From a virus (taxonomy: Duplodnaviria; Caudoviricetes), in the IMG/VR virus record IMGVR_UViG_3300013413_000021, positions 1 through 27,794 of that record: a stretch of DNA of 27,794 bases; one strand, 5' to 3'. Position numbers and translations under genes: made by a program. The notes beneath the pieces are model-generated. The model was not told where the DNA came from. It searched no databases and was given only the letters and a program-made list of their open reading frames with translations. Below are positions 3,757 to 23,537 of this stretch, piece after piece. Within the stretch, counting starts at the first letter, position 1. Every line of letters starts with the position of its first letter.

Positions 3757-5414
3757 GCGGCCTCCTTATTGCTGCCACCGCCATCGGTCAGTTCGGGCTG
3801 GGCGGGGATGGTCTCCTTGGGCTGGGAGCCGGGAATGGGGAGCCCCGCCTCGTCGCGCATCTTCCTTTCCTTGACCCGGCGCGACTGCTTGGCGGCCCAG
3901 GAGGTGCCGTTGTAGGCCTGGGTTTCCTCCTCTGCGGTGGTGACCCCAAGCTCGATGCGCTTCTCCATGGCCAGCGACTCTTCCTTCTCGTTGATCATCC
4001 CCTTGCCCGGGCCGTTCCAGAGCGCTCCGCTGTAGGCCTTGCGGACCATGGGGTCGGCGAAGAAGCCGGGGGCCAGGATGCGGCCCAGGGCCACCGCCTC
4101 TGCGAGCCAGATCTCGTAGAGGGGCTGGCAGAAGTTGTCGGAAAGCCAGTTGCGGCGGGCGAGGAAGAACTTCCAGGCGTCGAGCATGGCGGCGCGGGCG
4201 GCTGAGTAGCTCGCGGTGTAGTGCTTGATGAGGATCTCGAAGGGGATCTCCAGCGCCACCCCGATCTGGCGCACGATGGCCAGGAAGAAGGGGTCGAACT
4301 GGTTGCCCGGTTGCTTGGGCTCGGCGAACTCCACCTCTTCGCCGGGCATGAGTTCCAGCACGTTGCCAGAGCCGAGCCTCAGGTCGTTGCCTGCGGCGGC
4401 CGCCACGGGGTACTGCTGGGTGACCACCTGCGGCCCGGGGGCGTGGGACATGTTCTGTATGCCCTGGGCGCCCTGGCTCTTGACGAAGACGGTGAAGAGC
4501 GCGGATACGGCGGCGGCCATCAGGACGTGCTCCTGGTAACGGCCGAGCATCTTCAGGGGCTCGATCACCGGGGCGAGCATGGGGATGCCGCGCGTCTGGT
4601 CGGTACGCAGCACCCGGAAGAGGTGCACCACGTTGAAGAAACCGGTGGCGGCATTGACCGCCTCGAGGCGGTCCCAGGTCCAGGATTTGCCGGTGACGTA
4701 GAGCCAGTTGCCGGGATGCTGACGCAGGACGTTGTAGGCGATCGGTGCGCCGTCCTCATCCTTTTCCACGCCGGCTACCAGGCGCGGCTGGTCGAAGCCG
4801 AAGTTGGGGTTGCAGACGCGGTCCGCCTCTATCAGCTGGATGCGCAGCCTATAGGGCCATCCCTTAACGGTCTTGCGGGGGGTGTTGGCGAAGACATCTC
4901 CGTTTTCCATGCAGGAGCGGAAGGCGAGGTCCTGCAGACCGTAGAAGTCGAGGGCGCGGTTGAGTGAGGCGTTCTTGGACTCTGCCCAAAGGGCGAACTC
5001 GCGGGAGGTGTGGGTCTGCCAGGCGTCGGCCTCCTCGGGTGTCAGACCGAGATACTCGTGGTCGATGGTGGGTTGCGGTACCAGACCGCTTCCTACCACG
5101 TTGGTCACGGTGGTACCGATCACACCGCCGGCCAGGGGCTGGTTTCTAACGGCGTCGCGGGAACGGGCGCGCAGGCGCGGGAGATCGGGAACGCTGGCCG
5201 AGTCGGCATCGGTTATGGAGGGGTTCCAGGTATTGGTCTCCCGACGATTGACGGCGGCTCCCTGGTAGGAGTTGCCGAATACGCCCAGGCCGGAGCCGCC
5301 GACCGCACCGAAGGAGTGGCCCAAACCAGAGCCGCCAACAGCGGTGAAGGACCCGTCCTCGGCTCGCTCGAAGCGGTAGTACTGGCGCCCGACTTTGCAA
5401 CCTTTACCTAGCAC
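3753..5414 (-). CDS. Portal protein, lambda family
   Basis: LRARSRDAVRN, QLIEADR, RGIPMLAP, YSAARAAM; probable GTG start at 5414 overlapping the gpW stop. The longer ORF call to 5750 is spurious. Confidence 0.93.
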   Translation of the reverse strand: MLGKGCKVGRQYYRFERAEDGSFTAVGGSGLGHSFGAVGGSGLGVFGNSYQGAAVNRRETNTWNPSITDADSASVPDLPRLRARSRDAVRNQPLAGGVIGTTVTNVVGSGLVPQPTIDHEYLGLTPEEADAWQTHTSREFALWAESKNASLNRALDFYGLQDLAFRSCMENGDVFANTPRKTVKGWPYRLRIQLIEADRVCNPNFGFDQPRLVAGVEKDEDGAPIAYNVLRQHPGNWLYVTGKSWTWDRLEAVNAATGFFNVVHLFRVLRTDQTRGIPMLAPVIEPLKMLGRYQEHVLMAAAVSALFTVFVKSQGAQGIQNMSHAPGPQVVTQQYPVAAAAGNDLRLGSGNVLELMPGEEVEFAEPKQPGNQFDPFFLAIVRQIGVALEIPFEILIKHYTASYSAARAAMLDAWKFFLARRNWLSDNFCQPLYEIWLAEAVALGRILAPGFFADPMVRKAYSGALWNGPGKGMINEKEESLAMEKRIELGVTTAEEETQAYNGTSWAAKQSRRVKERKMRDEAGLPIPGSQPKETIPAQPELTDGGGSNKEAA

Positions 5415-5653
5415 TGGAACATCACCCCGCGGGCGCGGATGCCGCCGCCATTGGAGAGGCGCCGCACGCGGCCCTCCCAGAAGAGAATGTCGTTGTTGAG
5501 CTTGTCGAGGTCTTCGCGGGTAACCTGGCGCTCCACGCCGCCGGCATTCACCCGGGCGGACTTGGCACCGCTCAAGAGCTGTGTGCGGGCGGTCATCGCC
5601 GAGACAAGGGCGTCGGTCGCTTCCTGGAGAGTGATTCCGTTCTGATCGGGCAT
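5408..5653 (-). CDS. Head-tail joining protein (gpW-like)
   Basis: 81 aa with RQVTREDLDKL; immediately upstream of the portal. Confidence 0.8.
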   Translation of the reverse strand: MPDQNGITLQEATDALVSAMTARTQLLSGAKSARVNAGGVERQVTREDLDKLNNDILFWEGRVRRLSNGGGIRARGVMFQC

Positions 5654-5694
5654 GGGCCAGCTCCACTACTAGATGCTGGGCCTGAAAATGAAAA

Positions 5695-6184: not shown

Positions 6185-8134
6185 TTAAAGGCCCTGGCCG
6201 CGGACCCGACGGCCTGCTTGAGAGTGTTCATCAGGTTTTTGCCACATTTTGACCTGGGCGATCTCCACCAGGGCGAGCTCCATCTGCGAGCAGTCCCAGA
6301 GGTGGTTGGCCTTGTTCTTTGGACACTCGTAGAGACCCTGCTCGTTCTTGTATTCCGCCACCATCTGGCTGCAGAGATCCTTCAGGAGGTCTCCCTGGAT
6401 CTTTTCCCCCTTGGCCTTGAGTTCCAGCTGCTCTGCGCTGTAGCCCGAGTGCAGGTGCCAGGCACCGGGGTCGGAGGGGCCGACCAGTAGCTTGCCGGAG
6501 AGTTTGTCCTTGAAGAAGGTGGTGTTGATCGTGTAAAGGCTCGCGCTGCCCGGGAGTGGCTTGTTGGTGCCGGGGATACGGTCAATGGCGGTGACGTTGT
6601 ACTCGCGGCTCATCCGCTGGCGCCCCTTGAAGAGGATGACGCCGGGGTTGGCGGCCGCGAACAGGTAGGCCTCGGCCGTCTTCGAGAGGTCGGCGTGCTC
6701 CTCCCCCTCTCCGCCGCCGGAGTCCAGGCCGCGCAGGGTGACGATGTACTTGTTCTTGGCCACGTCCTCGAACTGGGACTCGAACATGATCCGCCTGAGT
6801 CCCTCCCAGCTGTCCACGAAGCCGCACTTCAAAAGCCAGCTCTCCTGCTCCAGGCCGTAGCCCCAGGCGGTGATCTTGTACCAGAAGCCGCGCTTTTGCA
6901 TGTCCGCGGCGCAGGTAATGGCGGCGATGGGGAGCGAGGGGACCAGACCCTCCGGACGGTCGTCGCACAGGCGCCGGATCTGGTCCTCCTTGCGGTCCAC
7001 CTTCTCACCCTTGTAGTCCACCACCTGGTAGCCGTGGGCGTAGTCGACCTTGTCGGCCAGCTCGCCCCCCTTGGAGCGCAGATACTTGCCGCAATACTCG
7101 GAGAGCGGGATCATCGGGAAGGGGAGGGCGGTCGCGTGCAGCCCCACGCTCGAGGGGCGCGGGTCGTCCTCCCCCTTCACGCAGACCCACTTGCCGGTCT
7201 TGTAGGAGATCTCCCGGTCATACTCGTCCCATTCCACCCCGCAGGCATTGCAGGCGTAGCCCACCGCCACGTCCCCGTTCTCCACCTCCTCCGCCGTTGC
7301 CCCGTCGGGGATGGAAAGGTGCTGGTCGTCCATGAGCACCAGCTTTTCGCAGTGGGGGCAGCGGTTCTGGTACTGGAAAACCTGCCGGCAGGACATGGTC
7401 CCCTTATAGATGAAGCGCCCCGCCGGCGTGGAGCCGAACATCCTCTTGGAGCTGTTCTCGTCGCGGCCGCGCTTCCTGATCAGCTTGACCGGGTCGGTCT
7501 CCGAGCCCACCATGGGGGGATATTTGTCCACCTCGTTGCCGAAACAGTACCGACCGAAGAAGTTGGCCATGCTACGCGCGCTGTTGGCGGAGGCGGGGAA
7601 GAGATGCATCCCGTGGGAGAAGACGATCTGCGTCTTGGCTGTATCGTCGGCCCGGCGCGAGAGGTAACGCTTCAGTCCAGGCGACTCCCTGAACATGGGG
7701 ATGATCTTGGTCTTGAGGTTGGCCCCGGCGTCGGGGTCGGTCGGCTCCAGCCAGAATACGTTCCCCGGGGGGAGGTGGCGGATACCCCTGGTGACGGCGG
7801 CGAGACAGTTGAGCATGACGTTGGTCTTGGCCGTGCGCTCCGGCCAGCAGAGCCACATCTCTTTCACCCAGGGGCGCTGGAAGAGGTCCATGGGGAAAGA
7901 GGCGTGGGGGACCAGGTCGTTTCTCCATGGGCCACGGCGGGCGTCCACGCCGGTCACCTGCCGGTACTTGGCGGCGCACTGCGAGACGGTGATCTCCTCG
8001 GGGGGCTTGAGCCTCAGGCGTACCGAGCGCGGCAGTGCGAAACGGACCTGACGGCCGGCCAGGCGCTCATGGATCTCCGCCGGAAGGAGAGGGTGCAGGG
8101 AGATCTCCCGCGCTATCAGTTCGACCTGGCTCAT
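6185..8134 (-). CDS. Terminase large subunit, lambda gpA family
   Basis: GPWRNDLVP, NEVDKYP, GSTP, CPHC...CNAC zinc motif, DMQK, DSGG, NHLWDC; start MSQVEL overlaps the terS stop. Confidence 0.92.
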   Translation of the reverse strand: MSQVELIAREISLHPLLPAEIHERLAGRQVRFALPRSVRLRLKPPEEITVSQCAAKYRQVTGVDARRGPWRNDLVPHASFPMDLFQRPWVKEMWLCWPERTAKTNVMLNCLAAVTRGIRHLPPGNVFWLEPTDPDAGANLKTKIIPMFRESPGLKRYLSRRADDTAKTQIVFSHGMHLFPASANSARSMANFFGRYCFGNEVDKYPPMVGSETDPVKLIRKRGRDENSSKRMFGSTPAGRFIYKGTMSCRQVFQYQNRCPHCEKLVLMDDQHLSIPDGATAEEVENGDVAVGYACNACGVEWDEYDREISYKTGKWVCVKGEDDPRPSSVGLHATALPFPMIPLSEYCGKYLRSKGGELADKVDYAHGYQVVDYKGEKVDRKEDQIRRLCDDRPEGLVPSLPIAAITCAADMQKRGFWYKITAWGYGLEQESWLLKCGFVDSWEGLRRIMFESQFEDVAKNKYIVTLRGLDSGGGEGEEHADLSKTAEAYLFAAANPGVILFKGRQRMSREYNVTAIDRIPGTNKPLPGSASLYTINTTFFKDKLSGKLLVGPSDPGAWHLHSGYSAEQLELKAKGEKIQGDLLKDLCSQMVAEYKNEQGLYECPKNKANHLWDCSQMELALVEIAQVKMWQKPDEHSQAGRRVRGQGL

Positions 8135-8694
8135 TCCTCGTCCTCGCCGCCCTTGTGGAACACCCCCTCGATCAGGTCGGGGACTAGCATCTCGGCGAAG
8201 GCCGCGTCCACCATGCCCAAAAGTTCCTGGACCGTCTCCTCCCTGCGGGCCGGGTCGCCGCCGGCGACGTGTATGACCCCGGAGACGCCGACACCGACCT
8301 GATGCTCCAGGGAAGCGTGGAGCACCCCCACCAGGGCCGCCAGTCGCTCCTCGACCACGTCCCGGTGCAGCCATTTGTTGTCCAGATCCCGGGACGACTC
8401 CTCGTTGTCGCGTTCCTTTTTCTCGGTCTCGGCCCGGAGTTTCCTGAGCTCCAGCTGAGCGGTCTCCTCAGCCGTGCTCTTCTGCACCAGCGACTGGCCG
8501 GTGGTCAGGTCGACGTTCAACTCTTTCCGGACGTAGGCGAGGAGGGCCGAGAGGCCGATACTCTTGTCCGGGTTGACCAGTTTGAGCAGGTCGCAGTCGT
8601 TATAGAACTTGCTCTGGCCGACCCCCAGGTTCTGCCCCTTGATGAAGAGGCGATAGGCCTCCGCGCGGTTTTTGTAGCTCTGCTGGTAGTCCAC
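8131..8694 (-). CDS. Putative terminase small subunit
   Basis: Directly upstream of and coupled to terL; N-terminal HTH-like part plus coiled coil (ELRKLRAETEKKE). Confidence 0.72.
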   Translation of the reverse strand: MDYQQSYKNRAEAYRLFIKGQNLGVGQSKFYNDCDLLKLVNPDKSIGLSALLAYVRKELNVDLTTGQSLVQKSTAEETAQLELRKLRAETEKKERDNEESSRDLDNKWLHRDVVEERLAALVGVLHASLEHQVGVGVSGVIHVAGGDPARREETVQELLGMVDAAFAEMLVPDLIEGVFHKGGEDEE

Positions 8695-8695
8695 G

Positions 8696-8962
8696 CTAGG
8701 CCTCGTAGTAGCCGCGGGCGCGGTTTTTTTGGAGCACGGATTCCATGGCCAGCTCCACGTCGGCGCCCCTGCCGGCCAGGATGTGGTGCATGGTCTCCGA
8801 GACGTGCTTGACGTCTCCGGTCTCCACCGCGGCGTGCTGGAGGTCGCCCTTAAAAAGGGCGAGGCCGACCTCCAGCACCTCGGAGAGCAGGTGCCACCAC
8901 TGGCGCCAAAGGCCGTTGCGGATGAAGCGGGTGCGCGGGAACTGGTACAGGTTTTCGCTCAA
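8696..8962 (-). CDS. MazG-like NTP pyrophosphatase-fold protein
   Basis: HLLSEVLEV...VETGDV...KNRARGYY (ExxE...ExxD pattern); TTG start overlaps the intI stop. Confidence 0.6.
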
Positions 8963-10125
8963 AGGGTTCCTCCTTGCGCTGCGGCGGCTATGATCTTGCC
9001 GGCGGCCTCTGCGACGGTGAGCCCGAGCCTGGAACCGAAGGCGACCAGGTAGCGGCGCACGTCGTCGCTGATCCGGACGGTGACCGAGTCGGCGGTGCCG
9101 GTGAGCAGACGGTCCAGGGGGCTGCGGGTGTCGAAGCGCTTGACCATGACGTGGGTGTAGACCTCGGTGGTCTTGACGTTTTTGTGTCCGAGGTAGTATT
9201 GGACCTTCCGGATGTCGACGCCGTCCTCCAGGAGGTGGGTGGCGAAAGAGTGACGCAGGGTATGGGGGTGGGCCGGCTTGTGGATACCGGCGGCGTGCAC
9301 GGCGGATTTGAACGCCTCCTGGACGGCGGAGACGTGCAGGTGATGGCGGCCTTCTTTGCCGTCCTCTCCCGCATAGCGCTCAAAGGCGGGAAAGAGCCAC
9401 TGCCAGCCGAGGCTTTTGGCGTAGGCGGGGTATTTCTTAGCCAGGGAGTCCGGCATCTCCACGGTGCCCCAGCCGGCGCCTAGATCGGTATCGTGCAGCT
9501 CGGCGACCCGGGCGATCTGCTCCTTGAGCGGGCAGATCAGCGACTCGGGGAGCGGCACCGCGCGGGAGTTACCGTGCTTGGAGTCGTGCAGGATGAGCTG
9601 CCGCGCGCCGAAGTCCACGTCTTTGACGCGCAGCTCTAGGCAGTCCACCTCGACGCGCAGGCCGCAGCCGTACATGAGGGCCGAGGCGAGCCAGTAGACC
9701 CCCTTGAGCCGGGAAAGGATCGCCGCCACCTCCTCGCGGGAGAGCACGCAGGGGAGATGCTTCGACCGCCTGGCCCGGAGGGCGTTGACGTCTCCGACCT
9801 GGATGCGCAGCACGTGCCGGTAGAAGAACAGCAGGGCGTTGAAGGCCACATTCTGGGTGCTGGCGGAGATATTTTTCTTCTCGGCCAGGTAGGTGAGGTA
9901 TTCGCGGATCGCCTCCTCCGCTTGGGAAAGGGAGTGGTTTCTCGCCTTCCAGAGGATGAAATCGACGACATAGGCGAGGTAGGAGCGGCGCGTGGAGGGG
10001 CGGCAGTGGCGCAGGGTGAAGACCTGTTCCAATTGTGCCAGGAGCGGCGCGATCTGGCGGCCTTTCAGTATCTCCTTATCAGAGATCGTCTGTTTGCAAA
10101 TGCCCGGTATGGCGTACGTTTCCAT
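8959..10125 (-). CDS. intI: Integron integrase (IntI-type tyrosine recombinase) with C-terminal extension
   Basis: [22 protein letters not shown], IntI-specific insert [10 protein letters not shown]...[26 protein letters not shown]...TTEVYTHV; AAGGAGG RBS. Confidence 0.92.
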
Positions 10126-10133
10126 GGTTTCCT

Positions 10134-10217
10134 CCTTTGCGAGTTTCCGGCAATTATACCGCCGTGCAGAGTTCGCTTCTTTCCGGCTGGGCCTTTCCGG
10201 CGCCCTTTGCGACTTTC
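10134..10217 (-). promoter_or_regulatory. Putative intI promoter with direct repeats
   Basis: Minus-strand TATAAT at 10153-10158; CCTTTGCGA(G/C)TTTC at 10134 and 10204; TTTCCGGC at 10144, 10180, 10194; no good -35. Confidence 0.5.
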
Positions 10218-10280
10218 ATTGTCGCCTCTCGGCAGAGATCTCGCGCAGTTGCGGTACGCCTGATGCGAGATGCACCGGGA

Positions 10281-10307
10281 GGGTGGCTAGTTATGTAATA
10301 GTTAAAC
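10281..10307 (+). other. attI-like recombination site
   Basis: GGCTAGTTATGTAATA-GTTAAAC: GTTRRRY core at 10301, non-palindromic, ~175 bp upstream of intI, bordering the first cassette. Confidence 0.62.
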
Positions 10308-10475
10308 CAGATTCGGATCTTCATGCAGGGCACAGATGCTGCCTGTCTCAGGGTTACAAGCGCAGCCTGCTCGACCCTTCAGCCTGTCCAATGGCCGCAC
10401 CGCCTCTGCCGCTGGCGGATTGACCGTCTCCACGATCCAGTAATCCGTGAGAACTACCTCGTCTTGGCTGTTCAT
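10302..10475 (-). CDS. Cassette 1 ORF, 57 aa hypothetical with a Cys/His cluster (absent from the ORF track)
   Basis: MNSQDEVVLTDYWIVETV...CACNPETGSICALHEDPNLV; purine-rich RBS; TAA coincides with the GTTAAAC core. Confidence 0.7.
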   Translation of the reverse strand: MNSQDEVVLTDYWIVETVNPPAAEAVRPLDRLKGRAGCACNPETGSICALHEDPNLV

Positions 10476-10494
10476 CCTCTCCCTCCCCTCAATG

Positions 10495-10542
10495 GTTTAA
10501 CCCGCGCTTCCACCCTGCGGGTGACGCGCTGTGCCGTTAACG
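10495..10542 (+). other. attC-like site 1 (48 nt)
   Basis: GTTTAAC-CCGCG-CTTCCACC-CTGCG-GGTGACG-CGCTGTGCC-GTTAACG; extra C in the left L box; GGTTTAAC is the exact complement of GTTAAACC at the cassette start. Confidence 0.68.
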
Positions 10543-10959
10543 AGATTCCACCTGCACCGGTTCCAGATAGCGATACAGTGCCGTGGATCTCTTTTTTCTG
10601 AGCCGTTTTGTTCTCTCGCTGCCTGGCACCCGGCCCCGCTCCCGACGGTATTCGCTCGCCAGAGAAATGAGAAGTTGCCGGTGAAATGTCCGCATCGCAT
10701 ACCCGAGCTGATGAGCGGCATCACGGAAAATGGAGGATACATTGCCGAAAGCCCTTTGAAGTTCGCATTTCTGGCAGGTTGTGTCCTGAGACAGCTTGAT
10801 CTCGCACCCGCAACTGATGCAGGCGTTTTCCCACTCAGGATGTCCGACCAGGGATGCGCGAATGTGAGCAGTGATACGTTGTTCCTCAGCGTACCTATCG
10901 CTAACAACGCCCTGGACACGGGCGCGGAGTGCGCTGATATTTGCCGCTGAAATGGTCAT
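10537..10959 (-). CDS. Cassette 2 ORF, hypothetical zinc-finger protein
   Basis: ATG at 10959 with AAGGAGG; CISC...CQKC; stop in the GTTAAC core at 10536. Confidence 0.7.
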   Translation of the reverse strand: MTISAANISALRARVQGVVSDRYAEEQRITAHIRASLVGHPEWENACISCGCEIKLSQDTTCQKCELQRAFGNVSSIFRDAAHQLGYAMRTFHRQLLISLASEYRRERGRVPGSERTKRLRKKRSTALYRYLEPVQVESR

Positions 10960-10973
10960 GGTTTTTCCTCCTT

Positions 10974-11008
10974 GGCTCACCGCGCTGGTCAGGGCGCAAC
11001 CGTTAAAC
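10974..11008 (+). other. Degenerate or truncated attC-like site 2
   Basis: GGCTCAC-CGCGC...GCGCAACC-GTTAAAC; intact right core, eroded left core, only 35 nt. Confidence 0.4.
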
Positions 11009-11203
11009 CGGGAACAGTCCCGGCTGTTTCTCTGCCTCTTCTCTCGCCTTCCGTGCTTGTTCCTGCTTCTTGCTCATGCCGATGGCTCCATGTTCAGTAC
11101 AGGAACCGAGACGCCGATCATCTACGCGGTGCATGGTATGGCGGCGACAGGTAGGGCACCAGTGCATCACTTGGCTGGTGTTGCGAGTGTAGTGCTGGCT
11201 CAT
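11003..11203 (-). CDS. Cassette 3 ORF b, small zinc-ribbon-like protein
   Basis: MSQHYTRN...WCPTCRRHTMH...CTEH; ATGA overlap with the upstream ORF; stop in GTTAAAC at 11002. Confidence 0.68.
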   Translation of the reverse strand: MSQHYTRNTSQVMHWCPTCRRHTMHRVDDRRLGSCTEHGAIGMSKKQEQARKAREEAEKQPGLFPV

Positions 11204-11739
11204 GGTCGCACCCCCGCATCCAAAGGTCGCACCCAATCATGGTTGTCGGGGTGGCGCGTCAACAACTTCCGCTGCCCCAGATATGTCTCAGCCTGAGAGA
11301 TAAACCCGCGATCATCATCGTTGTCAGGACTCTGCAGGTCATACCATACTGGGCTGCCGGGGCCGTTTTCATGGTGACCAGCGCAGATGCACTCTATGTC
11401 AGAGCGGGCGGCGTGGTAGGCTATCTCGCGTTCCAACTCATTCTGTTTAAACATTCCCTCGACTTGGTGGCAGATCGAGCCGATCACTGTCCCCGCACAA
11501 CCGAGTAGAGTCTCGTCAGACTCAGGAGTGGAAGCGCCAACCAGATTTGCAAGACGGCGCAAGCGCTTGGCGTCAAAATTGTTGGTGCCAACTGCGAAAT
11601 CGAGGTCCTTTCGCAGCTGGTCAATTTCCTCCACGGCATCTGCAATAATGTCGCAGGTTTTGTTGACGTATTGTCTAGTGGACATCTGCGACATGCGCTG
11701 AACCAGTTTCTCAGCTCTTTCTTTGATTGTTGCCATCAT
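11200..11739 (-). CDS. Cassette 3 ORF a, hypothetical phage protein
   Basis: 179 aa; GGAGGGG RBS directly next to the ATTTAAC inverse core. Confidence 0.7.
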   Translation of the reverse strand: MMATIKERAEKLVQRMSQMSTRQYVNKTCDIIADAVEEIDQLRKDLDFAVGTNNFDAKRLRRLANLVGASTPESDETLLGCAGTVIGSICHQVEGMFKQNELEREIAYHAARSDIECICAGHHENGPGSPVWYDLQSPDNDDDRGFISQAETYLGQRKLLTRHPDNHDWVRPLDAGVRP

Positions 11740-11749
11740 CCCCTCCAGG

Positions 11750-11796
11750 ATTTAACCCCTCGCTCGGCCTACCGTCCAGCTCAATTATCGTTACAC
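11750..11796 (+). other. attC-like site 3 (47 nt, weak inner pairing)
   Basis: ATTTAAC-CCCTC-GCTC...TATC-GTTACAC; nearly the same length as site 1; left core is 6/7 complementary to the cassette 3 start. Confidence 0.42.
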
Positions 11797-11825
11797 TCTC
11801 CAACAAATGGCCTGCCAAATCGTTT

Positions 11826-13274
11826 CTATCTCTCTATTACCGGCGGCCGCTCGGCGTAGAGAGCCCAGGCGCGGGTGTAGGCTTCTTCCAACTTGGCGAG
11901 TGCCTTCAGCAGGCGGTCTTCATCCGAGGATTCGAAGAGTAGGTCGATGCTCTTCTCGAGCTGGCGGATGAACTCGACGGCCCGGGGCTTGTTCTCTTCC
12001 AGCCATTCCCAGTTTGTAGAATCCCAACTGGTTTGTATCCGGCTGCGGGTATCCATGATCGCCTGCATCATCTTGTCGTGATCGAATGCCATCGTTGGTG
12101 CCTCCTGTTTCCGCTCTTCTTTTGCTGCGGTCTGCCGAGGCTGCAGGGAGATCGGCAGACCGTCGATGATCCATTGCCTGATGTCCAGGCCTTCCTTCCA
12201 AGCGTCCCCGGGATCCTTGCCTATCGGTACGGGCCAGCGCTCTGAGTGGGGGAAGTGCTTCTGCCACCAGAGGGCATTTTGCCCCCCGGGGTTTTCATAG
12301 CGCCGCGTCTTCTGGTTGACCCTCGGGTCGTAATCGAGCGCGTTGAGGATGCAGACGGCCCGGGTGAAGATCGGGGCGGTATCGGCGTCGGGCCGGATGC
12401 TGCAGGAGGTGAGCGCGACCGGGCAGACCAGGTCACGGGCCAGCCAGTAGATCAAGAGATCGTCGAAGTCGCTCTCCACCACCAGGAAAGCCCTGGCATC
12501 GGGGTTACGTACCACCAGACCCTTGCCGCTTCCTTCCAGGAAGAGGTACTTGGGCGGTTTGTCCTGGCCTTCAGGTACCACCAGGTCCTCGTCGGGTCGA
12601 CGAATCCTGATGCGGTAGATTGATGCGCCGGCAAAGCTTGGGATGATGTAGCCGCGCTGGATAGGGAGGACGGTAACGGACTTCTTTTTTTCCTCGTTCC
12701 ACTTGTTCTCCAACCCCCAGGCGGAGCGTTGTTTGAAGAGGGGACCGACTTTGCCATGGCGAAGCTCGCCGGGGTTCCAGCCGAGGCGGTGTTCCTTCAC
12801 CGCTTCCAGCGACAGCCCGCGTCCGGCGAGGTAGGCGAGGCGATCGGGTGCTGCGAGGAGCTGCTCGTGGGCCCAGTCCACCAGCTCGGACGCCTTCTTC
12901 TGCCAGAGCTCGGCGGGGCTCTCGGCCTTCCTCGGATGCCAGTCGTCGCCCTTCTGTTTCTCCGGAGGCGTGGCACTGCCGCTCTTGCGGCGGCGGGGGG
13001 CAGTGATCCCCTTGCACTTCTCGTAAAACTTGCAGTCGGTAGCACCACAATCCTTGCCTGCCTCCAGGAAGGCATCCTTGCAGCCAAAATTCTCGACCTC
13101 GCGCAACCATTTGACGTAGTCGCCCTTGAAATCGCAGCCCTGGCACTTGAAGATGCCTTTTTTGACCCAGGCGACCAGCCGGCTTCCCCCGCATTTGGGG
13201 CAGTGGCCTTCCCAGGAGTTGTTGCTCTGTTTTTTGAAGCCCGGCTTGCCTTGGATTAGGTCGAAAAAGGTCAT
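11826..13274 (-). CDS. DNA primase (zinc ribbon + TOPRIM)
   Basis: CPKCGG...CQGC, YLAGRGL, LVVESDFD, ALDYD, GKDPGD; likely start MTFFDL at 13274. Confidence 0.85.
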   Translation of the reverse strand: MTFFDLIQGKPGFKKQSNNSWEGHCPKCGGSRLVAWVKKGIFKCQGCDFKGDYVKWLREVENFGCKDAFLEAGKDCGATDCKFYEKCKGITAPRRRKSGSATPPEKQKGDDWHPRKAESPAELWQKKASELVDWAHEQLLAAPDRLAYLAGRGLSLEAVKEHRLGWNPGELRHGKVGPLFKQRSAWGLENKWNEEKKKSVTVLPIQRGYIIPSFAGASIYRIRIRRPDEDLVVPEGQDKPPKYLFLEGSGKGLVVRNPDARAFLVVESDFDDLLIYWLARDLVCPVALTSCSIRPDADTAPIFTRAVCILNALDYDPRVNQKTRRYENPGGQNALWWQKHFPHSERWPVPIGKDPGDAWKEGLDIRQWIIDGLPISLQPRQTAAKEERKQEAPTMAFDHDKMMQAIMDTRSRIQTSWDSTNWEWLEENKPRAVEFIRQLEKSIDLLFESSDEDRLLKALAKLEEAYTRAWALYAERPPVIER

Positions 13275-13287
13275 TTGCTCCGCCCAA

Positions 13288-13584
13288 GATGATATGATGA
13301 TCAAAAAAACGGCTTAAATTTCATCATCATGCTTCTAAGTCGTTGTTTTGTTTTTCTTTTTCTCTTAATTATGATGAAATGATGATATTCCTAGGGTCTG
13401 ACAAAATATTTGAGATGTTTTCAGCGGCTTTTATTGAAGCCGTATTTGGCGGATGATCTCTCTCCCGTATGCGCACCCGCGCAACATCATCATTTCATCA
13501 TGTTCGGGCTATTTCACTCGATATTACAAGGCATTACAAACATGATGATGAAAAAACCGCCGTTTTTAGAATCATCATGTCATC
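13288..13584. repeat. Long symmetric ATGATG-repeat element, probable replication origin
   Basis: Five exact inverted pairs all centred on 13436; AT-rich; intergenic between helicase and primase. Confidence 0.75.
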
Positions 13585-20211: not shown

Positions 20212-20419
20212 TACGCCGCTCCATAAGCGTTAATTTCTTTTGAATAGCTGCCGCAGCTGTGCTATAACGGCAAACTAAACAAACGTCTAACCTCTAATTA
20301 AAATTAGGGTTTTCGGGAAATCTCCGTCTTTTTTCCCAAAAAACCGAAACAAATGTTATCTAAGAGAACTTATAAAACGGAATAACGCAAAATGCAACAT
20401 AAAAAAACGCAAAAAGCGG
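20212..20419. promoter_or_regulatory. Lysis/lysogeny switch region
   Basis: AT-rich gap between divergent HTH genes; ACGCAAAnnGC operator-like boxes at 20385 and 20407. Confidence 0.6.
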
Positions 20420-20811
20420 AGTTTATCCTCAATGCACTCCGTGAACATTATAAATTGGGCACTTATCGGGATCTAGCGTCTTTTCTTGGTGTCCCATTGA
20501 GTACATTGAGTTCCTGGAAGGCGCGCAACTCGATAAATGAGGATATTATTTACGCAAAGTGCGTAGGGGTGAGTGCGGAATGGCTCAAAACGGGCGAGGG
20601 GAGCATGTTCCCTCAAGAGAGGGGGCCGGAATCAGTCCAGGAATCAACAGAGGAATATGGGGGCTACATTAAAGCAGTCGCGGAGATGATGAGGGCCATG
20701 GACCCCGAGACTCAGAAAGACATTTTCCTTAGTGTTCAGAAAGAGAAACTCCTGCGTGAGCTCCTCACGGAGCGGGGAGAAAAAAGGAAGGTAATCAACG
20801 AATCAAAATAA
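20392..20811 (+). CDS. CI-like phage repressor (HTH only, no S24 peptidase)
   Basis: DLASFLGVPLSTLSSWKARNS...GVSAEWLKTGEGSM. Confidence 0.85.
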   Translation: MQHKKTQKAEFILNALREHYKLGTYRDLASFLGVPLSTLSSWKARNSINEDIIYAKCVGVSAEWLKTGEGSMFPQERGPESVQESTEEYGGYIKAVAEMMRAMDPETQKDIFLSVQKEKLLRELLTERGEKRKVINESK

Positions 20812-22325: not shown

Positions 22326-23537
22326 ATGTCCGTCAAACCCTATAAAAACAAGCAAGGTGAGGTCGTCCCGCACGCCTGGCTGATCAACTGCTACCCCGCC
22401 GGCCGCAAGGGGAAGGAGATCAAGAAGGTGGTGCGCGATTGCACCGAGGCCCAGGCCAAGCAGCTGGAGTTGGCCCTGATCCGCCAGCACGTGCACAAGA
22501 TCGTGCCTCACGACCCTCTGGTGCGCGACGTGGTCCCCGAGTGGCTGCAGGCCTACGCCCTGGACCACGCGATGAGCACCGTGGGCGACATCGAGCGCGC
22601 CATGCTCCGGCTGCTCCCCCACTTCGGAACCTGGCACCTCTCCCGGCTTACCCTGCCGCTTTTCGAAGACTACATGCGGAAGCGTCAGAAGGACACCTGG
22701 CGTCCGCCGATCCAGAACCCGGACCCGGATAAGGTATATATGTCGCCCAAACCAGTCGGCAAGGGCCGGATCAACACCGAGCTCAAATACATGGGGATGC
22801 TGATCAAGTACGCCGTCGGAAAGAAGTACATGCTCAAGCCCCCTTTCGACATCCCGCAGTTCCGGAAGCTGAAAAAAACTAGCCCAGCACTGCCGACCGT
22901 CAACGAGGTAGATAACCTCCTTCCCAACCTGCACCCCGATGCCTACCTGGCCGTGCTACTCTACCATGACGCCGGCCTGCGCCGGACCGAGGCATTGACC
23001 CTGCGGACAGACGACGTCTACCTGGAAGAAGAGATTTTGAGAGTGATAGGGAAGGGGAACAAACAGCGGACCGTCCCTATCGTCACCGACCGGCTAAAAG
23101 AGGGGCTCGCCAGGAGGCTGCAGGAGATCGAGGAAGGCTACCCTTACCACCGGCAGCTGAAGAACAAGGGGAGCGAGGAAAGGCGCAAGAAAGCCAGGAT
23201 CAACCACAGCAAAAGCGCCTACATGATCCTCAACCCTCAGACCGGCCAACCGTACAAGGACCTCAGAAAAACAATCGAAAATGCCGCGGAGAAGGCAGGC
23301 ATAAACAAGAATATATATAATCATCTCTTCCGTCACACCCACGCCACCCTGTCCCTCGAAGCCGGGGTCGACCTGGTAAGCGTGCAAGAGAACCTCGGGC
23401 ACGCCGACATCGGCACGACCAGAGGATACCTTCAGGCAAGGCTCGGGCATCGGTTGAAAGAGAGCCAGAAGCTGAAGGCCTTCTTGCAGAAAGACAAGAA
23501 GCGCAAGGGTGACGATACTGACAATGGCGAGGCGTAG
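22326..23537 (+). CDS. int: Phage integrase (tyrosine recombinase)
   Basis: AGLRRTEAL, GKGNKQR, HLFRHTHAT, LGHADIGTTRGY; adjacent to a tRNA fragment. Confidence 0.93.
   Translation: MSVKPYKNKQGEVVPHAWLINCYPAGRKGKEIKKVVRDCTEAQAKQLELALIRQHVHKIVPHDPLVRDVVPEWLQAYALDHAMSTVGDIERAMLRLLPHFGTWHLSRLTLPLFEDYMRKRQKDTWRPPIQNPDPDKVYMSPKPVGKGRINTELKYMGMLIKYAVGKKYMLKPPFDIPQFRKLKKTSPALPTVNEVDNLLPNLHPDAYLAVLLYHDAGLRRTEALTLRTDDVYLEEEILRVIGKGNKQRTVPIVTDRLKEGLARRLQEIEEGYPYHRQLKNKGSEERRKKARINHSKSAYMILNPQTGQPYKDLRKTIENAAEKAGINKNIYNHLFRHTHATLSLEAGVDLVSVQENLGHADIGTTRGYLQARLGHRLKESQKLKAFLQKDKKRKGDDTDNGEA

Follow-up and report, generated by a model that had tools for sequence, protein, structure and literature searches.

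An integron-type platform in a prophage, with cassette genes that appear to run antisense to their attC sites

Introduction

In integrons, the bottom strand of attC recombines with attI, with crossover between G and TT, and in the account given in PMC5027507 this strand selectivity is held to exist to place promoterless genes downstream of Pc. What, then, should be made of an array in which the genes read toward the integrase gene? The window examined here, the whole 27,794-nucleotide stretch of phage record IMGVR_UViG_3300013413_000021, contains such an array. Its minus strand, taken alone, looks classical (a core, an RBS, a gene and a stop within RYYTAAC), and therefore the polarity of the recombination sites had to be tested. 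The reading that we favor, at a probability of roughly four in five, is a phage-resident platform of integron type with sites of canonical polarity and antisense cassette genes; because the sites are canonical but the genes antisense, the leftward lytic transcript, and not Pc, is the likely source of their expression.

The phage and its integrase

The whole window is a lambdoid prophage, with an integrase gene at 22326-23537, a cI-like repressor gene at 20392-20811 and a minus-strand gene run that includes early genes, two primase genes, terminase, portal, protease and capsid. Within this run, intI (8959..10125, minus strand) and the cassettes lie between a DnaG-like primase gene (11826..13304, minus strand), the upstream neighbor of the array in the leftward direction, and the terminase region. 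Downstream of intI (6185..8962, minus strand) are a conserved 88-aa gene, whose start is overlapped by the intI stop at 8959-8962, and probable terS and terL genes. The 88-aa gene follows intI in 11 of 17 other contigs of the same IntI clade, a set in which L255 and L258 may represent one phage, and terL (at least 33% identity) follows in 8 of the 17. A comparison of the window with Rfam gave no matches. Between the two primase genes, at 13288-13584, there is a long inverted repeat with ATCATC-type repeats that is a candidate phage replication origin.

The IntI protein scores 338.6 against TIGR02249 (cut-off 265) and belongs to a clade of 387/388-aa proteins. It has the IntI-specific insertion and the catalytic residues of canonical integron recombinases, and its best solved relative, both by sequence and by fold, is VchIntIA (PDB 2a3v), to which it aligns nearly gap-free over 31-340. 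Among 34 aligned clade members, R157, K183, R291, H314 and Y323 are invariant, and H288 is nearly so. Clade IntI proteins have a one-residue insertion (RVEVDC) after the catalytic Arg, as well as a C-terminal extension of ~45 aa (8962-9105 in the window) in which two predicted helices follow a low-confidence linker. No Pfam family and no usable Atlas match was found for this extension, which could be a DNA-binding or dimerization module. Clade members amount to 219 matches at E ≤ 1e-80 among 8000 scored candidates, 120 of these matches being listed. None was found in 50,697 GenBank phage records, where the best match reached 40%, or in the genome and metagenome scans (1/64 parts covered) whose loci provided our cellular control integrons. 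Locus L260, from a GenBank phage (KX853513, Virus Rctr41k), has an IntI-like gene annotated xerD at 4680-5678, among small same-strand genes, and may be another unrecognized phage integron.

Recombination sites and their polarity

As in canonical integrons, the predicted attI lies beside the 5′ end of intI with its core pointing away. This simple site (10289..10307, plus strand) consists of an L box (10289-10295), a 5-nt spacer and an R box (10301-10307), with a predicted crossover between 10301 and 10302. It aligns with class 1 attI1 and with the attI of 11 clade relatives (12 clade loci in total), and folding found no attC hairpin to the left of its core. The distance from attI to the intI start is 50-75 nt in relatives versus 176 nt in the window, because an insertion of ~115 bp (10164-10280), absent from the 11 aligned relatives, splits the two parts of the attI region. 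The part closer to intI carries a repeat-like motif of the clade attI region (10153..10163, plus strand) that aligns with relatives and with attI1 and is likely an accessory IntI site; its minus strand contains a perfect -10 hexamer (10155-10160), without a -35, that could give intI its own promoter. A 21-codon ORF with an RBS (10154..10219, minus strand) falls mostly within the insertion and has its stop on the repeat-like motif at 10154. This ORF matches no Pfam family and has a fold z of -1.5; together with the insertion it is possibly a leader peptide, or else a relic of insertion at a secondary site. In L014, the first unit closes with a second attI-like sequence, located ~590-615 nt upstream of where intI starts, instead of an attC, and it resembles delta-attI-type cassettes (PMC12901181).

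Three putative attC sites follow on the plus strand. In attC1 (10495..10542), R″ is at 10495, followed by a 5-nt spacer, L″ with an extra C at 10510, L′ at 10520-10526, a 9-nt spacer and R′ at 10536; no exact copy was found in viral contigs. attC2, in its long form (10899..11008), has R″ at 10899, L″ with an extra G at 10914, L′, an 8-nt spacer and R′ at 11002, and it has paired L boxes together with a 6-bp inner stem. A short attC2 starting at ~10975 was rejected: it is without AAC and without pairing, whereas the long form satisfies both the L boxes and the rule that R″ complements the 5′ core of its own cassette. attC3 (11750..11796), with R″ at 11750, an extra C at 11765, a 9-nt right spacer and R′ at 11790, is the weakest of the sites and belongs to the same family as the attC sites of L001 and L002. 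The paired L boxes and the extrahelical base on the L″ arm are those of canonical attC sites. In folding energy, the window attC sites were no better than shuffled sequences (z between -1.3 and +0.4). The right-hand spacer is long, at least 7 nt (7-9), in 20 of 24 clade attC sites versus 25 of 124 cellular ones (10527-10535 is an example in the window), and a co-adaptation of this spacer with the one-residue IntI insertion is possible.

Which strand of these sites would recombine? The initial annotation had oriented them on the plus strand by the position of attI and by an extra C in the left L box. Plus polarity is confirmed by the hairpin-less attI at the intI end, the fixed 5-nt left spacer and the position of the bulge; the extra base is C in attC1 and attC3, but in attC2 it is G. 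A covariance model trained on 30 cellular attC sites, each located after a sense ORF, gave 19 matches in the 13 clade loci searched, all 19 of canonical polarity, that is, opposite to intI. A class 1 control gave the same polarity, plus two weaker shadows on the opposite strand. In the window, attC2 was the only attC site that the model found (E 1.2, the best of 3 matches); a weak match on the minus strand within the portal gene (5144-5218, E 2.8) is probably due to chance. In 17 non-redundant clade loci, the window included, an attC finder run on both strands placed 24 sites on the plus strand and 2 on the minus strand. Our 31 curated sites had been picked by a plus-strand finder, and their 31:0 polarity count was therefore set aside as biased.

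These data bear on the most conventional alternative, namely a classical array on the minus strand in which each gene, with its stop in the inverse core, is followed by an attC and then by the RBS of the next gene, with the top strand recombining and intI downstream. A stop within RYYTAAC is the end of a classical cassette as PMC7691350 presents it, the cores are near-palindromic, and the own-core rule, being symmetric, is blind to polarity; moreover, attC3 (parse scores of 11.5 on the plus and 10.5 on the minus strand, near-equal) and one site of L247 can be parsed on the minus strand. Such an array, however, requires a hairpin on the left side of 10301, with attI at the far end, whereas the intI-proximal core is the hairpin-less attI motif, followed by variable bases that match the cassette, and it is the far end that has a hairpin. 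With the bulge and the 5-nt spacer on the plus left arm, and with both site searches pointing the same way, we consider a minus-strand array very unlikely, and the idea of a recombinogenic opposite strand, raised at the outset as the contrary case, fails in silico. By analogy with known integrons, recombination at the plus-oriented window sites would involve the bottom strand.

Cassette genes and their coding strand

The cassette genes are read from the minus strand. The gene of cassette 1 (10302..10475, 57 aa) has its TAA on the attI core at 10301, that of cassette 2 (10537..10959, 140 aa) on the attC1 core at 10536, and the second gene of cassette 3 (11003..11203, 66 aa, with a CxxC motif) on the attC2 core at 11002; the agreement of these three stops with the TTA of the cores, reported in the initial annotation, was confirmed. 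The first gene of cassette 3 (11200..11739, 179 aa) has its RBS beside the R″ of attC3 and is ATGA-coupled to the 66-aa gene at 11200-11203. A further claim, that the first RBS of each unit abuts the inverse core, is correct for cassettes 1 and 3, with the ATG 20 and 11 nt from R″, and needs revision for cassette 2: the true R″ of that cassette is at 10899, the RBS and ATG (10959) lie within the attC2 loop, and the first ~20 codons come from the attC2 loop and left arm. An RBS and ATG inside an attC loop are found in several relatives as well.

Every GTTA core forces an antisense TAA, and so only a long in-frame ORF is informative. The window has 47 GTTA, 6 of which close an antisense ORF of at least 55 codons; among these 6 are 3 of the 4 cores, versus 3 of the 43 other GTTA. 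Those other three (817, 2442 and 19989) close long ORFs of the minus-strand phage gene run, two of them head genes. In Markov-shuffled cassette bodies, the joint probability of three ORFs of 55 or more codons was ~0.0013. The observation of stops on cores is not due to chance.

Do these ORFs represent genes? Family searches gave no matches for any of the four, including the 57-aa and 179-aa products, and for the latter an Atlas search was without usable match; therefore, the coding strand in the window rests on homologues, and three of the four genes have homologues on the same strand. There are 14 for the 179-aa gene. For the 140-aa gene, a 38% homologue sits directly downstream of intI in L006, and a comparison with 19 candidates returned only the self-match.

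Relatives provide the larger sample. In 14 clade arrays, antisense ORFs of at least 55 codons are closed by 32 of 45 cores and by 13 of 14 attI cores; thus the survey of phage intI neighborhoods that had been suggested from the window bears out the pattern, with the first antisense gene ending on attI in 13 of the 14 arrays. With the threshold lowered to 40 codons, an antisense ORF ends on 17 of 23 clade cores, compared with 16 of 120 cellular cores (genome 11/69, metagenome 5/51) and 35 of 76 cores in other viral loci. Family content gives the same picture: among 123 ORFs of 60 or more aa in 13 clade arrays, PHROGs match 19 of 61 antisense ORFs, which include DNA methyltransferases and a thymidylate synthase (ThyX), versus 0 of 62 sense ORFs. 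With these counts and the homologues of the window's minus-strand ORFs, the contrary idea that plus-strand ORFs are the genes also fails in silico. For the first two cassettes of other viral integrons, PHROG matches were 12/53 antisense versus 0/50 sense, and for those of the cellular controls, which were scanned with a different library (Pfam), 14/53 sense versus 1/43 antisense. By longest ORF, the antisense:sense ratio is 11:1 in the clade and 7:71 in cells; other viral loci are mixed (25 antisense, 29 sense), some of them being classical, and since this classifier is too noisy for GC-rich viral loci, family matches were used there instead. The cellular control integrons are classical.

Expression and proposed mechanism

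How would cassette genes that oppose their sites be expressed? The initial annotation had suggested read-through by the leftward phage transcript, and this agrees with the order of the genes, with their coupling and with the absence of terminators. The minus-strand gene order is uninterrupted, with stops and starts overlapping at 11200-11203 and at the junction of intI with the 88-aa gene, and no minus-strand terminator match was found from 18900 to 8000. Nor was there a sigma-70 match on the plus strand in 8959-10300, where genes on the top strand of attC would have Pc; the canonical arrangement of such genes expressed from Pc is absent here, the genes being antisense. One might instead suppose that the inverted cassettes are themselves equipped with promoters, located within attC or distally, and that read-through is unneeded. 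ORF-less cassettes with antisense promoters are described in PMC8876359, and our scan, which performed at chance level (6 promoters found versus 3.7 ± 2.1 expected) and covered sigma-70 only, would miss other host promoter types. On the other hand, no minus-strand sigma-70 match was found in 10126-13300, and there is little promoter room because in most sites the RBS and start are either in the hairpin or no more than ~40 nt away from R″. We regard own promoters as very unlikely, and we favor read-through.

In the mechanism that we propose, IntI would recombine the folded bottom strand of attC with attI between G and TT, and because the crossover is at this position, each cassette would begin with the reverse complement of the stop codon of its gene. 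The hairpin would stand ahead of the cassette gene, at times with the start codon within it. The leftward transcript would run through primase, cassettes, intI and terminase in that order, and therefore the newest cassette would be just upstream of intI. IntI would be made during lytic growth, a stage at which attC can fold in the replicating DNA, and the cargo would be drawn from the accessory-gene pool of phages: methylases, ThyX and small unknowns.

Cassette mobility and origin

The variable bases of the cores speak to whether these units have moved. In 26 of the 31 curated sites, R″ matches 4/4 variable bases of the 5′ core of its own cassette, and it matches the next core in 3 of 31. The window values are 4/4, 3/4 and 3/4, with attC2 at 3/4 for its own core versus 1/4 for the next. 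This is the signature of a circular cassette form, as in canonical integrons, and applying the rule to 13 arrays uncovered missed sites in 2. As read from the sequence and from comparison, the anatomy of the locus, the strand of its genes, the stops flush with the cores and the signature of once-circular cassettes are in place.

Could the array nevertheless be a frozen relic or selfish passenger, with attC sites dropped between resident genes, no shuffling, and an inversion that is simply the orientation that spares the operon? The weak sites of the window and the insertion in its attI region would agree with that view, as would the two cargo genes with homologues outside cassettes. For the 66-aa gene, homologues of 44-45% in L011 and L030 are non-cassette genes after the 88-aa gene, and a 79% homologue in L001 has its end at the distal core, where the 2.5 kb that follow contain no matching R″; together with the 140-aa homologue in L006, these show that the cargo overlaps the gene pool of the phage itself. 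Yet intI is intact, with its catalytic residues conserved across the 34 relatives; arrays differ wholly between relatives; and the own-core match is frequent. One cassette (77% identity) occupies the first position in L244 but the second in L258. In a single soil run, X1, represented by short contigs, the attC1 body occurs with three other left flanks and also with different right flanks; in two of these left flanks a purine run precedes an antisense ATG. On the relic side, excision joints in X1 numbered 0, at thin cover limited to attC1 within the array. Overall, a relic strikes us as unlikely. As a side observation, near-identical attC sites are common to different phages (L011 and L012 versus L013), where they stand ahead of different genes.

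Where did the design come from? Inverted loci are scattered across the IntI tree. A quick tree needs 4 changes, of which its starred branches make just 1 necessary. An AU test with 39 rows, made without two long rows (L145 and L003) and run after an earlier tree was known, gave p 0.024 against a single clade of inverted loci. A single origin is therefore weakly rejected. As for the cassettes, IntI can insert at GWT secondary sites, termed attG in 10.1101/2022.09.11.507474, and so stop codons followed by C would be plausible targets. We offer as a tentative idea, possible but on the whole doubtful, that phage integrons are cassette factories in which IntI targets the reverse strand of a resident TAA and the gene acquires an attC ahead of it, turning backbone genes of the phage into inverted cassettes where they stand; that these then circulate in a pool private to phages, with long right spacers matched to the modified IntI; and that bacterial integrons gave rise to the design on more than one occasion. 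In its favor we set down the three situations of the 66-aa gene (in the backbone in L011 and L030, on the distal core in L001, in a cassette here) and the AU result.

Comparison with known systems

Compared with canonical integrons (class 1 IntI1/attI1 and VchIntIA), the window clade has the same IntI family and fold, an intI divergent from attI, R″-L″-L′-R′ attC sites, an extrahelical base at position 16 and self-complementary cores. It differs in that the genes are antisense to attC, the stop is in R′ rather than R″ and the hairpin is ahead of the gene; in addition, the right spacers are 8-9 nt, there are no Pc-driven genes, intI is coupled into the phage operon and the integrase has its C-terminal extension. 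Because the feature of Pc and gene orientation is lacking, we file the locus as a variant that works like an integron. It is not a CALIN, i.e. an attC cluster without a neighboring intI, since an intact intI lies 176 bp from attI.

The integrons and CALINs that Qi et al. 2023 (PMC9892861) describe in phages resemble the window in location, in methyltransferase cassettes and in attC-type sites. The complete integrons among them derive, in that account, by capture from integrons of Vibrio, class 1 or Shewanella, unlike the window; the Shewanella M16-3 array reads away from intI. The available part of PMC9892861 describes neither gene inversion nor a phage-specific IntI lineage. The reverse integrons of Treponema (PMC7691350; 10.1101/030866) are similar in that intI and the cassette genes share a strand. 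In Treponema, as those sources portray it, intI is flipped, and the genes come after it in the same direction as attC, whereas in the window intI and the sites are canonical and the genes oppose attC and precede intI; an intI oriented as attC, with agreeing genes, is not what we see, the attC polarity being opposite to intI in all 19 matches of the covariance model. Finally, attG sites (10.1101/2022.09.11.507474) have a GWT target, and such a target is present where a stop codon followed by C is read on the reverse strand, although attG is shown, in the material available from that study, for the insertion of cassettes into genomes and not for making cassettes from resident genes. Our literature search, with most subscription papers outside its coverage, found phage integrons and Treponema reverse integrons and no array with genes inverted against attC.

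What would such an arrangement mean? It appears that phages operate an accessory-gene shuffler of their own, one rich in methylases. Since the cargo is also present as ordinary genes of phages, the question of how cassettes first arise can be put to the test with these loci. Inverted cassettes that were captured by a bacterial attI would stay silent. In comparison with canonical integrons, in which strand selectivity and gene direction go together, this phage group reverses the genes and retains the recombination polarity, and thus the polarity of the site and that of the gene are separable.
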